A stretch of 64,000 nt of DNA, taken from NCBI GenBank assembly GCA_951406725.2, contig OX597815.1, forward strand, positions 69,440,001 through 69,504,000. Direction: 5' to 3'. Below, one piece after another: positions 2,098 through 62,640 of the stretch (position 1 is the first letter of the stretch; each line of letters opens with the position of its first letter). This DNA is from Octopus vulgaris (taxonomy: Eukaryota). The notes below the pieces were generated by a model. That model saw nothing but the letters and a program-made list of their open reading frames with translations, made no database searches and was not told the origin of the DNA. Made by a program: the position numbers and the translations under genes.

Positions 2098-2590
2098 TAG
2101 GGGGAAAATTCACAAAAATAAAAGAAGAAAAGACGAAGACAGGTGGTGTAGAGAACAAACAGATGTATTAGTTTAACGCTCGGGAAGTGAAAAAATCTTT
2201 AACGTTTCGAGCCTACGCTCTTCCACAGAAAGGAATACAGAAAGAAACAGAGAGAGAGAATAAAGAATGTGTAATGGCTAGCGATCTATCATGGCGAATG
2301 CCGGACAGTGGGGTCACACAGGAGTGCTAGAAAGAAGAAGAGATAATAAAGTAGTGGTGATCCCAAAATGAAGGTGCGCGTGAGTGTGTATAAGAGAGCA
2401 TATATGTGCGTGTGGAAGAGGGCTGGTGACCTTGACGTGTGCGTGTGTGCATGTGTAGGTGTGTGGGCTGGGAAGTGGTCACTGCTAGTGTGTGCGTGAT
2501 GGTGTGATGCGGTGTGGTGTTGTGTGGTATGGTGGTGTGTGGTGTGGTGGTGTGTGGTGTGATGTTGTGCTGTTGGGATGTGGGGGAGGC
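2098..2590 (-). mobile_element. PLE pseudo-LTR-like module (family H1) between two (TA)n runs
   Basis: Homologous to 10590-10795 (+) and 22620-22921 (+); carries a hammerhead-like motif at 2196-2233. Confidence 0.65.
2196..2233 (-). ncRNA. Minimal type I hammerhead ribozyme-like motif, variant core
   Basis: Minus strand reads cttt CUGUGGA A GAGC guag GCUC GAAA CG UU aaag: 4-bp stem I, 4-bp stem II, palindromic AACGUU stem III. Confidence 0.6.
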
Positions 2591-2660
2591 ATACATATAT
2601 ATGTATATATATATATATATATATATATATATATATATATATATATATATATATATATAT

Positions 2661-3275
2661 TATAAATAAGGATAATATCGATATTTACATATCGATATTT
2701 TCAAGTGGCCAGCATGGGAATAAATACCATACAAAAGTAATAATTTTTTACAACTATAAATAAGGGTGTCTGAAATAGCAGTCAAATCCCTGACTCTAAA
2801 GACCACCTTTACCTTTGTATGGTATTTATTCCCATGCTGGCCACTCGATAATATCGATATTTAAAAATCAATTTTATCCTTATTTATAAGTTTATATAAT
2901 TCGTCACTATATTCACTGCGGTGTTTATTTTGACCATATCGTGCTTATGAGGTGGTTGGCGGGGAATTTGAACTGGCCTTGTACATACGTGCATATATAT
3001 GTTTGTATGGACGTTCGTATATGTAAGTATAACGTGTGTTCTGTATATATATATTTGTATTTATGTGCCCATCTGATTTATTCAACTGATGAAGGCAGAG
3101 CTTATTTGAAGCAAATCTAGAAATCCAGGATCTTGAATTATTCAGTAATATCTTTTTGCTAGTCTATTTTGTCCCTCTGTCTTATCTCATGGTGCGATAT
3201 GAACATTTAAGGTGGTCTTTAGAGTCAGGGATTTGACTGCTATTTCGGCATGGTGGTGTCTCTCAAACACCCTTA
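2661..3275. mobile_element. (TA)n-flanked composite with two inverted partial copies of a central module (PLE-like inverted pLTR)
   Basis: 2661-2740 is the reverse complement of 2809-2888, and 3209-3275 is the reverse complement of 2760-2809. Contains GAAATAGCAGTC and CTGATGA hammerhead half-motifs. Confidence 0.6.
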
Positions 3276-3338
3276 TATATATATATATATATATATATAT
3301 ATATATATATATATATATATATATATATATATATATAT

Positions 3339-3568
3339 ATGCTTTATTTAAAACCAGCAGAAATTTAACAAAAGCTGTTTCTCGGAGTTTCACGTTCCCG
3401 TTCGTCGGACAGTTTTGTTAACAAAACTGTCTGACGAACGGAAACTTGAAACTCCGAGTAATAGCTTTTGTTAAATTTCTGCTGCTTTTAAATAAAGCAT
3501 TTTACTCTACCTCTGGTATTCGAGTACTCTTTCTCCCACCTTGTTTCACATTTATGTGTTTACTCCGG
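3339..3568. mobile_element. (TA)n-flanked element beginning with a spacer-less ~80-bp-arm palindrome; hammerhead-like motif in each arm
   Basis: Arms 3339-3419 and 3420-3500, centre GTT|AAC. Plus arm has CTGACGA A CGG..CCG at 3431; minus arm has CCGACGA A CGG..CCG A GAAACAGCT. Confidence 0.65.
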
Positions 3569-58718: not shown

Positions 58719-61270
58719 TATGTATGTATGTATGTATGTATGTATGTATGTATGTATGTATGTATGTATGTATGTATGTATGTATGTATGTATGCATGCA
58801 TGTATGTATGTATGTATGTATGTATGTATGTATGTATGTATGTATGTATGTATGTGCGTATGTTCCGTAACGTGTTTTAGGTAGCTTGACCTGTTATGAT
58901 CTTCCCAGTTGTTAAATTTCGCCACAAAATCCCGTAGTCATTTACTGGATCTCGGTCTTTAGACTTAAAATTGCTATGTTCATTATCTTTGACCTAATTT
59001 ATTTTGCATGTATTACCTTTTACTGAAGGACAAAGACTATTGATTGAAGTTTTAAGCCCCACTTTTAACGCTTACATCTGTCTTGTATATTTTGTTGTTA
59101 ACACATGCATGTCTATGGTCATTAAACATTTCACTGAGCAATCAGCTGTCTCTGCGTTCAATCTCGCTACGCAGAACCTTGGGTAAAGATTATCAACCAT
59201 AGTCTCAGAGTGTGAGTGGAATATAATAAACAATGATCATAAAACCAACCTATCTATCTATCTATCTATCTATCTATCTATCTATCTATCTATCTATCTA
59301 TCTATCTATCTATCTATCTATCTATCTATCTATGTCTGGGTGTTTGTATGTCTGTGTGTATATGTGTATGTGACTTGGAACTTTCGCAGGTCCCGGTTGT
59401 GTTCAAACCGTCATTTTGAACACGACCAGTGATGAAATTTCGAAGTCACTGTCAACTCAGTCATATATATTAGACTTTGGACATGCACTAAACTTATTAC
59501 TCGATCAATGTCTGTTGTCTTCATGCATTTAGAAACATTTATTTTTTATAACACACACATACACACACGCACACACACGCACACTCATATATATGTATGC
59601 ACACAGAAACACATACGCGTATACACACATACCCACATACGCATGCACACACATGGATACAGGCATCTATTAATACATTTCTATTGAACATCTTTCTCCT
59701 GTTAATATCACGTGATCGTTAAAGTAGTACAACTAATCGTGCTAAGAAGTTATTTTAGTTTTCTTTATAAATGCTTCCCTGCACTCAGACATTTATAAAT
59801 GTTATATCAAAATAACTATCGCTTTCTAATTCCTATTCTCCCCCTCCTCCCCTTCTCTCTCCGCTCTCTTTTTTTCTCTTTCTTTCTCCTTCGTCTTTCT
59901 CTCTCTTTCTCTCGCCCTCCTTCTTCACTATTTCTCTTCATTTCTTTCCCTCTCATATCTTTAAACGTTTTGCTTTGACATCACGTGTGAGCTGCAGACG
60001 ATGTAATCGGTTACTATTATATATTGCTGATTCTTAGCCAATTCTAAATATAACTAGGAGAGTACATTCGGAAAATTGAACCACTGGAGGATTCGAAATT
60101 ACGAATATAAATTATAATATATCGTCATGTGCACGATGGACGGCGAGAATCGGGACGATGACATGCATGTTCATTCTTAATAAGTTCTGGTAGATTCCAA
60201 TGTAAATATGCTAATCGTTGCTGTAAGCTTAATTTATAAAGAAGAGTCATTGGTCTGATGCCGCTTTGACCGAGAAGACACAACTATGTCGAAACATCGG
60301 GTGCCCCAAAGTTCTCTTACGCTCATAAACTGTGTTATGAACACATGTTCGTGTGAAAGGAATTGTTATGCAATGAAGAAACAAAACAGCGATTAGCATA
60401 TTCACGTTCGAATCTGTCGGAACGTATTAAGAATGAATAAATATAATTATATTCCCTAAAAATTTCCATCTTATTTGTTTGGTTACTTATTTGTTTCATT
60501 ATTAGAATGCTTTGGCTGTTCCGGTATCTGGCTTACTTATTGATGGAAAGTACCTACAAGTTTTCCTTTATCATTTATTATTAGAAGTCATATTGATCTT
60601 TCCTTTACTCCACTCTGTGCCTTTCTCTCTACCCTTCATTATCCATTTTCTTTCTTTCCTCTCACCCTTCGGTAACACGTGACCATCCTGTTTCGCCTTC
60701 ACTTCCTTTTCCTACTTCCCGTTGACTTCTTCAGTTATTCTTTTTGGTTATCTCGCCTTAGCATTCAATTTCAACCCCAGGATCGTCTTATTTTTCCTCT
60801 TTCGTTCTATCTTTCCCTCCATTTCTTTCATCCTTCAACCTTTCATTCTGTCTTGCTGCCTCTCTACTTTTATTCTCGAGTTTGATAGAACATTTCTCCA
60901 TTAGCGTTACTTCTGTAGATGTCTTGTCATATGCTGTTTCATAGCCGAAAGGCCTTTATATGTATGTATGTATGTATGTATGTATGTATGTATGTATGTA
61001 TGTATGTATGTATGTATGTATGTATGTATGTATGTATGTATGTATGTATGCATGTATGTATGTATGTATGCATGCAGGTATGTACGTATGCATGCATGTT
61101 TGTATGTATGTGTGTGTGTGCAAGTGTGTGTTTGTATCTCTCTCTCTCTCTCTCTCTCTCTCTCTCTCTCTCTCTCTCTCTATATATATATATATATATA
61201 TATATATATACACGAGTGTGTGGACAAATGAAAGAAGGGCACTCAATCAATTTATTGGGAGTTATATGTA

Positions 61271-62098
61271 TAGATCAAAACAGTTTGATTCAAATTCGTT
61301 GGTACTTTTGAGTTTCAAGCATAATGCTAGTCGTCAGCCATTTTGAGTTTGAATGACAGAAGTTGATTGTTCTTACTGTATGGTGGGATGCGATTGGTCG
61401 ACGAAGGTCACGCGGTGTCGTGGTTTGATGTTGCTATATGGGTTACAGTTAGTTGGAAAATACCGCTTGGTGAATCGGAAATTGACTACGTGGAGGACAG
61501 GAAATAGACTACGTGGCAATTAAGAAATCGGGCAGCTTGTTGGGGGAGTTGGAAGAGGGCGACATGTGCAAGTATATAGTTTTGTATGTGGGTGAGTAGA
61601 CACGCTCGTATAGTTTTGCGTGCATGTGTATAGTGATGTGAGCGTGTGCATTTGTATATGGGCGCGCACGTGTGTATGTATGTGTGTGCAGACGTGCGCG
61701 TGCGTGCTCTTATACAGATGTGCACGCTCGCATCAATATACACATGCACGCAAAACTATATGTGCCTGTCTACTCACTCACATATAGAACTATATACTTG
61801 CACATGCCACCTCTTCCTAGTCCCCCCAACAACGTGACTGATTTCCTAATCGCCACATAGTCTATTTCCTGTCCTCTATGTCGTCAATTTCCTGTTCACC
61901 ATGCAGTATTTTCCAACTAATTGCTACCCATATACCAACGTCAAATCACGACACCACCTGACCTTCCTCGACCAATCGCAGCCCACCTTACGGTAATAAC
62001 AATCAACTTCTGTTGTTCAAATTCAAAATGGCTGACGAATAGCATCACGCTTGAAACTCATGAGTACCAACGAATTTGAATCAAACTGTTTTAATCTA
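61271..62098. mobile_element. ~830-bp fold-back (palindromic) element with ~400-bp diverged arms
   Basis: tagatcaaaacagtttgattcaaattcgttggtact... / ...agtaccaacgaatttgaatcaaactgttttaatcta; pairing continues to a centre near 61685. Confidence 0.88.
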
Positions 62099-62429
62099 TC
62101 TATCTATCTATCTATCTATCTATCTATCTATCTATCTATCTATCTATCTATCTATCTATCTATCTATCTATCTATCTATCTACCTACCTACCTACCTACC
62201 TACCTACCTACCTATCTATCTATCTATCTATCTATCTATCTATCTATCTATCTATCTATCCATCCATCCATCCATCCATCCATCCATCCATCCATCCATC
62301 CATCCATCTATCTATCTATCTATCTATCTATCTATCTATCTATCTATCTATCTATCTATCTATCTATCTATCTATCTATCTGTCTGTCTATCTATCTATA
62401 TCTATATCTATATCTATATCTATATATAT

Positions 62430-62640
62430 ATGCTCGTAGCTTAGTTTTTCTAATGCTCGTAGCTTAGTTTTTCCTTGGGGCTGGCCGGATCGGAGCGATC
62501 TCAAGATTAATCAGCCGAAATTGCTACGATGATCCGGTTCTTGACTGAAGATTGAGGGCTTCGAATGTCCCGTCCGTGTTTTTTGTATCGTCTTCTAAGT
62601 GTTTTGCGTTCTTGTCCCAGTTTGTACTTTTCTACATATA
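62430..62640 (+). mobile_element. PLE pLTR-like module (family H3) with a 23-bp 5' duplication
   Basis: ccttggggctggcc..cagccgaaattgc..gaCTGAAGAttgagggcttcGAATgtcccGTC; tgctcgtagcttagtttttc occurs twice. Confidence 0.6.

Follow-up and report, generated by a model that had tools for sequence, protein, structure and literature searches.

We describe a 64-kb stretch of the Octopus vulgaris genome (64,000 nucleotides (nt); GCA_951406725.2, contig OX597815.1, positions 69,440,001 to 69,504,000 of the forward strand), referred to below as the window, in which hammerhead ribozyme motifs are embedded in (TA)n repeats. In the reading that we consider fairly probable, the type I modules are the pseudo-long terminal repeat (pLTR) ends of coding Penelope-like elements (PLEs) inserted in (TA)n, and five atypical modules belong to elements without an open reading frame (ORF), which carry a predicted permuted hammerhead that is likely self-cleaving and which are likely copied by a Naiad-type reverse transcriptase (RT) and GIY-YIG endonuclease. 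A preliminary description of the window had placed type I hammerheads at ten typical sites and atypical versions at four others. Inspection of the window found hammerhead-like sequence at every one of them, but the type I form does not hold for 25849 or for the atypical sites, which fit the permuted fold. The five modules, in window coordinates, are as follows.

62430..62645, plus strand: end of an ORF-less element of family C1, with a permuted hammerhead and CUGAAGA at 62545-62551.
28254..28390, plus strand: family C1 copy whose 5' end lies within the motif, some 11 nt past the predicted cut on its 3' side.
36345..36790, plus strand: family C2 element end, permuted motif at 36605-36677, with one mismatch in stem I.
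56765..57300, minus strand: family C2 element end, permuted motif at about 56960-56887, point-decayed.
25546..25990, plus strand: end of an ORF-less element of family S1, permuted motif at 25790-25859, CUGAUGA at 25853-25859.

At the sites near 62546, 28287, 36670 and 56890, GAAA lies upstream of CUGAnGA. In the C1 end at 62430..62645, the upstream strands are the stem II 5' strand (62479-62484), P2a (62485-62490) and the stem III 3' strand (62495-62499), followed by C17 (62500), 3' of which the cut is predicted, and by stem I (62501-62506). The middle consists of the stem II 3' strand (62512-62516), GAAA (62517-62520) and stem III (62520-62524), and a 3-nt bulge plus GA, P2b (62532-62537) and stem I (62539-62544) lead up to CUGAAGA. 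The strand order would therefore read stem II 5', P2a, stem III 3', H17, stem I, short linker, stem II 3', GAA, stem III, P2b, stem I, CUGAnGA. The strands cross as they do in type SGC, but the opening lies between A9 and G10.1; P2 is a helix connecting the distal ends of stems I and II. The permuted descriptor also matches 25849 (stem II 25790-25795/25819-25824, H17 at 25811, stem I 25812-25816/25848-25852) and the families S2, S3 and C3, all with other stem sequences, and P2 is made of different sequences in S1-S3. Judged from sequence and predicted pairing, the four atypical sites and 25849 are best described not as decayed type I motifs but as non-circularly permuted hammerheads.

CUGAnGA, GAAA, U16.1 and G10.1-C11.1 are kept in 8/8 groups of matches while the stems and N7 vary, a pattern partly imposed by the descriptor; the same holds in part for the presence of A15.1-U16.1, of an H17 other than G and of the conserved core as a whole. 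The 3-nt bulge with tandem GA fits the consensus of a kink-turn (K-turn). Bulge and tandem GA on both strands are found in 17/18 C1, 5/8 C3, 2/2 C2 and 1/1 Naiad copies (25/29 in all), and an AGUA/GAA loop in 8 of 10 S2-type matches; neither is clear in S1. The K-turn in family C and the octopus Naiad, or the loop in S2, would bend P2 back from stem III. By inspection, family C could not be accommodated as a decayed type I motif (its second half reads GAAU and lacks the stems), as type II or type III (stems I or III fail) or as a hepatitis delta virus (HDV)-like ribozyme (the CGAAUG strand has no P2 partner). A further decayed permuted motif at L081:7040-7125, a relative of family C, has the same stem III and a different stem I.

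The block order S, G, CUGAnGA is shared with the type SGC/CSG hammerheads of Eckert et al. (2023, PMC10085705), and so are the short linker between stems I and II, the helix joining them and the full conserved core of type SGC. The difference lies in CUGAnGA, which here is not continuous with its stem II strand, whereas in SGC no more than 1-2 nt intervene. In 8/8 groups the stem II 3' strand pairs better with the upstream strand than with the strand after CUGAnGA, and a weaker, adjacent downstream alternative is found only in S1-S3. The active form might nevertheless be an ordinary type SGC whose stem II uses the G-rich strand after CUGAnGA, the upstream strand being an off-switch competitor; S1, S2 and S3 offer a G-U-rich alternative stem II of 4-6 bp at 1-2 nt from A9, and C1 one of 4 bp after 5 nt. 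However, such a strand is missing from C2, C3 and the octopus Naiad motif (duplex energies of +0.8, -1.1 and +0.9 kcal/mol, against -11.2, -8.5 and -9.6 kcal/mol for the upstream strand), and P2 directly follows the upstream strand, like the stem I-II helix of SGC, so that we regard this alternative as very unlikely.

Simple folding gives P2 and stem III as one long hairpin, the base of which is distant from the loop. This geometry, the commonness of tandem units and the action of type I PLE hammerheads as dimers (PMC4209133) would suit helices formed in trans, with the hairpin loop of one molecule or tandem copy, carrying H17, the stem I and II strands and GAA, docking on the base of another. 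On the other hand, the conserved bend between P2 and stem III is a requirement of the cis fold, and published SGC ribozymes in which P2 is joined directly to stem III do cleave (PMC10085705). Folding in trans is, in our estimate, quite unlikely.

The permuted structure is well supported. The strict descriptor gave 55 distinct matches in the loci examined, which were largely chosen by family patterns, and none in any of six 1.8-Mb shuffles; the wider set comprises 66 matches in 8 groups. Among 18 C1-C3 copies, 94% of cells pair, compared with 17-47% in slid controls, and 8 of 22 pairs show two-sided changes, which are spread across all four helices. P2, which together with the K-turn lies outside the requirements of the descriptor, is 91% paired in family C, with one two-sided change. 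Complete intact permuted copies numbered 0 in a systematic genome sample of 660 kb (66 pieces of 10 kb), so that the 2 complete copies in the window overstate how common they are.

The atypical modules and 25849 are the ends of non-autonomous, ORF-less elements of 0.8-0.9 kb. Tandem units of 867, 797 and 898 nt were found. Comparison of these units (797-898 nt) with three of the genome's PLE proteins, no Naiad protein among them, brought up nothing convincing (best E=0.18). Near-full-length units occur at 3 (C1), 5 (C3) and 7 or more (S1) loci. Exact pattern counts, which are lower bounds on family size, amount to 84 for C1 (48-mer), 352 for C2 (32-mer), 80 for C3, 482 for S1 (17-mer), 193 for S2 and 11 for S3. 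Families C and S1 share a (TA)n target, a fixed 3' end, and tandem and inverted arrangements. The existence of non-autonomous families, as proposed in the preliminary description, was thus upheld for the atypical sites and 25849, but their ribozyme is not of the palindromic type I form assumed there; it is knotted, with full stems. A PLE ORF near family C in L202 was considered as a parent and set aside as part of another element, with a TA run between them, and pairs lying 5.6-6 kb apart (L201, L303/L304), considered as element ends, turned out to be segmental duplications. In L243:6400-8400, a family C tandem unit is interrupted by a Tc1/mariner-like element inserted at a TA.

The position of insertion 5' ends relative to the predicted cut bears on function. 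Cleavage after H17 would give the template RNA a defined 5' end, and target-primed reverse transcription from the fixed 3' end would run to that cleaved end; if the template ends at the cleavage site, many insertions should start at or just 3' of nucleotide 1.1. This pattern was observed for C1. In 54 copies, selected by a pattern 3' of the hairpin, 6 start at nucleotide 1.1 (to within 1 nt), 30 at or 3' of 1.1, and 1 in the next 43 nt upstream; in flanking 18-nt windows the counts are 22/46 versus 1/24 (p=1.3e-4, one duplicated locus counted once). For C2, 7 of 20 copies start 2-20 nt 3' of the predicted site. Both insertions of a Naiad pLTR in L464 start at 1.1 (2/7 copies examined). Self-cleavage of the predicted permuted hammerhead is likely on this model, and we infer catalysis, folding in cis and the identity of the mobilizing protein.

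Several observations weigh against this reading. On the structural side, the pairing of stems I-III is built into the descriptor, and the alignment rows of C1 and C3 were picked by it; the number of pairs with two-sided changes is no better than in a shuffle control (320/500), and these changes rest on three subfamily splits. Pseudoknot-free folding energies of five permuted examples are no better than those of shuffles (z from -0.42 to +0.49), and the opening between A9 and G10.1 breaks the assumption of an uninterruptible block made by Eckert et al. (PMC10085705). As for mobilization, the best match between the ORF-less units and four genomic Naiad ends covers 33 nt at 79% (E=0.004). On the side of the insertion ends, the C2 test by itself is not significant (6/18 versus 1/12, p=0.19, with one row omitted), S1, the family of 25849, has no pile-up (0/30), and the pile-ups of S2 (3/20) and S3 (3/11) are weak. 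TA microhomology makes the position of the junctions uncertain by 1-2 nt. Moreover, among 30 copies each, the 5' ends of family A (14/30) and family B (11/30) pile up at +95 to +113 and at +43 to +48, respectively, which are not cut sites, so that a start site can mimic a cleavage signal.

Relative to the type I cut site, the pile-ups are displaced upstream by 95-113 nt in family A and by 43-48 nt in family B (L379-L438), and none of the 30 A and 30 B copies has its 5' end at the cut site itself (nucleotide 1.1). The sequence at the pile-ups is initiator-like. They are probably start sites, and solo pLTRs may have arisen by run-off copying as far as such a site.

Given these pile-ups, the main rival is that the knotted fold is real but non-catalytic, a structure for protein binding or RT recognition, with transcription starting at the H17-1.1 bond in C1. 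The lack of a pile-up in S1 would fit, as would the spread of the most abundant type I lineage with an A6U core, and according to PMC11167929 Poseidon hammerhead mutants had no effect on insertion in vitro and no RNA ends were seen at the site. What speaks against it is that the cliff of 5' ends falls within 1 nt of the structure-predicted bond both in C1 and in an unrelated Naiad pLTR, and that the core is kept in all eight groups while the stems and N7 change. We consider a non-catalytic role unlikely, and retain the interpretation of the permuted motif as a probably self-cleaving end of the template.

The architecture of the ORF-less elements leads to the Naiads. As described by Craig et al. 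(2021, PMC8557442), Naiad PLEs target (TA)n and show 5' truncation, partial tandems, inverted copies and tails, as the window elements do. By our own reading, the split hammerhead is also visible in the octopus, ctenophore, cubozoan and acanthocephalan consensus ends. Unlike Naiads, the window elements have no ORF with N-terminal GIY-YIG and C-terminal RT, and they show no clear sequence match to the pLTR. The same paper reports Naiads as lacking canonical hammerheads, while labelling some 'HHR_core' or 'HHR_half_core'. From its File S5 we inspected 25 consensus records by eye over their final 300-600 nt, about 29 further records lying outside the tally; record names were assigned by the order of File S1, 3' ends being the passages that precede the named headers. 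The split form is clear in Naiad Obim, Ovul, Movir-2 and Plae, and partial in Bfor, with a 2-bp stem I, and Esco, with a weak stem II. The CSG form shows clearly in Parc, Nbra-2, Nbra-3, Hcon, Hpol and Smim, as does the SGC form in Lpol and Sdum (with a U3-A8 core). The tally is 12 clear and 2 partial of 25, with none visible in 11. The octopus Naiad motif passed the descriptor in a genomic copy (L460), where the K-turn is present, and the Naiad_Ovul consensus motif has 200 exact copies in this genome. The 3' ends that precede Naiad_Sglo and Naiad-2_Chem in File S5 may be HDV-ribozyme-like rather than hammerhead-like.

Families C and S thus have the architecture and target of Naiads with little sequence in common, and by analogy they would be mobilized by Naiad proteins. 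They also resemble the animal non-LTR retrozymes of a recent preprint (bioRxiv 10.64898/2026.07.22.740005), which are ORF-less, ribozyme-bearing, PLE-derived and sometimes tandem; those are tandem type I arrays, whereas families C and S measure 0.8-0.9 kb, are mostly dispersed and truncated, and carry the knotted form. No paper listed by our literature searches, most being judged from the listing, connects permuted hammerheads with Naiads or with animal genomes; these searches did not extend to Lunse et al. 2017 or to the supplementary files of the preprint and of Eckert et al. The PLE expansion of octopus is already published, and two texts on it do not mention ribozymes. On balance, we lean towards the view that the 'missing' ribozyme of Naiads is a set of non-circularly permuted hammerheads (SGC, CSG and the A9/G10.1 opening bent by a K-turn), found from ctenophores to cephalopods, which would cleave in vivo, set the 5' ends of templates and persist in the non-autonomous octopus families.

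Nine of the ten typical sites of the preliminary description are type I minimal hammerheads of PLE pLTR ends, which is known biology. Five type I sites, one of them newly found, are listed first.

22150..22920, plus strand: 3' end (untranslated region (UTR) plus pLTR) of the Neptune-like PLE family A, core CUGUUGA (A6U) at 22790, H17 = U.
2100..2597, minus strand: end of a superfamily A subfamily, core CUGUGGA at 2228.
10610..10800, plus strand: decayed copy of superfamily A, core at 10675.
19427..19652, minus strand: decayed solo pLTR of a superfamily A relative, family core CCGACGA (U4C).
28021..28200, minus strand: decayed superfamily A relative, family core canonical; absent from the preliminary description.

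The families had been called sequence-unrelated. By contrast, the sites 2196, 10671, 19525, 22785 and 28141 are alignable, with stem II and GAAACG in common, and by this alignment they are one related superfamily, the largest lineage of which has a fixed A6U core. Exact copies of the 22785 motif number 3193 in the genome, and 20 family A copies examined have a common 3' end and variable 5' ends. The full-length parent (locus L056) carries this motif twice, 4573 nt apart, flanking an open frame of 1119 aa, in which Pfam recognized RVT_1 (E=1.4e-7) and, below cutoff, GIY-YIG (E=0.0065). A CX2-5CxxC linker precedes its C-terminal GIY-YIG, which makes the parent Neptune-like by motif alone. Copies of the 2196 type have GIY-YIG frames directly upstream at L063, L078, L131 and L133, and the copy nearest to the 10671 module follows a GIY-YIG frame in L132. 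The 19525 family (2657 exact copies) was first taken as non-autonomous, 13/13 copies being short, an idea dropped once a long UTR and a 5.4-kb parent (L242), whose protein is 58% identical to that of family A, were found. No coding parent was found for 28141.

At position 6 of the family A lineage, U was found in 13,153 exact matches versus A in 135, while N7 and H17 vary between subfamilies. The A6U-fixed lineage includes intact ORFs and, in the window, the cores at 22790 and 2228, so that the 2196 and 22785 sites read CUGUNGA instead of CUGANGA; the canonical CUGAnGA is kept at 3431, 3086, 33045, 42897, 50297 and 62032. Comparison of family A with four sequencing runs labelled as four other organisms gave variation at N7 and H17 and none at position 6, a weak observation as the runs were picked via this stretch. 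A natural A6C variant is reported to have low activity (PMC3088659). The core, the short palindromic stem III and the extra nucleotide after A9 are as in minimal type I PLE hammerheads, from which the dominant lineage here differs in its fixed A6U; the anatomy, with mostly solo truncated copies, inverted pairs, tails and few full-length elements, is also that of PLEs. In a young PLE family (L051, L052, L059), many 775-aa frames are intact and follow an upstream frame that is frameshifted (together 1175 aa if in frame); the family also has 4.27-kb tandems and the hammerhead core CCGAAGA (U4C).

The other type I modules and the PLE RT relics of the window are the following.

3341..3568, both strands: inverted pLTR pair plus a tail of about 70 nt, Hydra-like PLE, canonical cores 3431(+) and 3408(-).
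3056..3273, plus strand: type I family, core 3086, with an intact relative in L070; absent from the preliminary description.
3860..3947, minus strand: decayed type I motif with a long stem II, the sole copy in the sequence examined.
33040..33170, plus strand: type I motif with a 98-nt stem II domain, core 33048.
42815..43040, plus strand: pLTR of the PLE group of the 14239 RT relic, type I motif 42897; absent from the preliminary description.
50195..50660, both strands: inverted pair of decayed type I motifs with a long stem II, cores 50375(-) and 50487(+).
61215..62095, both strands: two copies of a canonical type I family in inverted orientation, with cores at 61337(-) and 62032(+); absent from the preliminary description.
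14239..15407, plus strand: PLE RT relic in two pieces (14239-14481 and 15270-15407), with a 3' fragment of a long interspersed nuclear element (LINE) between them.
19948..20714, minus strand: older PLE RT relic with stops.

The 3431 family has 3674 exact copies and a full-length parent (L199), whose 727-aa protein contains RWK and DKT. These motifs, with a CxCX5C linker and (TA)n, are the signature of the Hydra clade (PMC8557442); the second linker Cys is substituted in that copy, the likeness to Hydra-1_Obim was judged by eye, and Pfam did not recognize the protein. The 42897-type pLTR lies directly 3' of a GIY-YIG endonuclease frame (L155, L066, L026). No coding parent was found for 3086, 3865, 33045 or 50297/50482, and 62032 is linked to one indirectly. 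The region 61215-62095 is a near-perfect inverted repeat of 880 nt, the two arms of one PLE insertion, which if transcribed would give long double-stranded RNA.

The RT relics of the preliminary description stand, at 14239-14481, at 15270-15407 (rather than at 15420) and at 19948-20714 on the minus strand. The 14239 and 15270 pieces share 78% and 72% identity, respectively, with one intact PLE protein of the genome (1175 aa), to which the older relic matches with E=1.8e-9; Pfam did not recognize the window relics. The LINE fragment inserted in the first relic (14482-15270) has a 234-aa open frame without a Pfam match and is probably CR1-like, as judged from a motif. A Tc1/mariner-like transposase fragment lies at 4453-4794 (weak Pfam Transposase_1, E=0.051). 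At 33319, a short (TA)n-abutting repeat contains a CUGAUGA-like word, the second half of the core being absent in four copies.

With the strict type I descriptor (score of at least 8), 5 matches were obtained in the window versus a mean of 0.23 and a maximum of 1 in 30 shuffles; a first, loose descriptor scarcely exceeded the shuffles (4 versus 1.5). Only 2196, 3431(+), 22785 and 33045 of the cited sites passed, along with the uncited 62032, while 10671, 19525, 3865, 50297 and 50482 are decayed type I copies recognized by eye or by family alignment. Motifs additional to the cited ones are 3086(+), 28141(-), 42897(+) and 61337(-)/62032(+). The exceptional density once proposed was not borne out: the window has 5 matches in 64 kb (78/Mb) and the genome sample 48 in 660 kb (73/Mb), of which 7 come from one tandem array (three shuffled sets gave 3, 2 and 4). 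The window is therefore typical of the genome, at about 1 strict motif per 13 kb. Including decayed copies, the window holds about 20 motifs, a total that rests on window-derived queries and is hence not comparable with the sample. Extrapolation to the 2.8-Gb genome gives about 160,000-190,000 strict type I motifs, far above the roughly 9,000 of Xenopus tropicalis and 4,000 of coelacanth, which were counted with a different descriptor (PMC4209133). Rfam gave no hammerhead in the best 150 of 512 matches on the window, where simple repeats dominate, and six loci with intact motifs likewise yielded nothing at gathering score; the window is rich in microsatellites.

That PLE-type hammerheads lie in (TA)n was borne out, and so was the abutment of the modules on (TA)n: 16 of 20 family A copies end directly in at least 4 TA units, compared with 1.9% of window positions. 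Many copies do measure just 200-500 nt between TA runs, and the search for parents came up empty at five or six type I sites, as would be expected if unrelated short type I units had spread in a retrozyme-like manner at exceptional local density. However, 5' ends are variable and 3' ends fixed, five of the sites are related, and the density equals that of the genome sample. Linkage to PLE ORFs was found for six type I sites (22785, 19525, 3431, 2196, 10671 and 42897), whose modules are truncated or solo pLTR ends of coding PLEs; for the rest no parent was found, the link of 62032 being indirect. The short-unit model is refuted for families A, 19525, 3431 and 42897, and as a whole we find it hardly credible. 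No tandem type I hammerhead array occurs in the window; one was found elsewhere, at L071:2300-4550 (G000:C1 near 20.0 Mb), where 359-nt units, each bearing a canonical type I hammerhead, are repeated in tandem and in inverted orientation, a truly non-LTR retrozyme-like arrangement.

What the preliminary description presented as its main result is mostly known PLE biology, and the atypical sites are a conserved knotted variant in non-autonomous elements and, by eye, in Naiads. Non-circular RNA permutations were earlier reported only from metatranscriptomes and one bacterium. Here, permuted forms reach hundreds to thousands of copies in animal genomes, and inspection by eye places them across a whole clade said to be without hammerheads. 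The record of insertion ends speaks to the question whether cleavage of PLE hammerheads takes place in vivo, with a signal for the knotted form and none for minimal type I.

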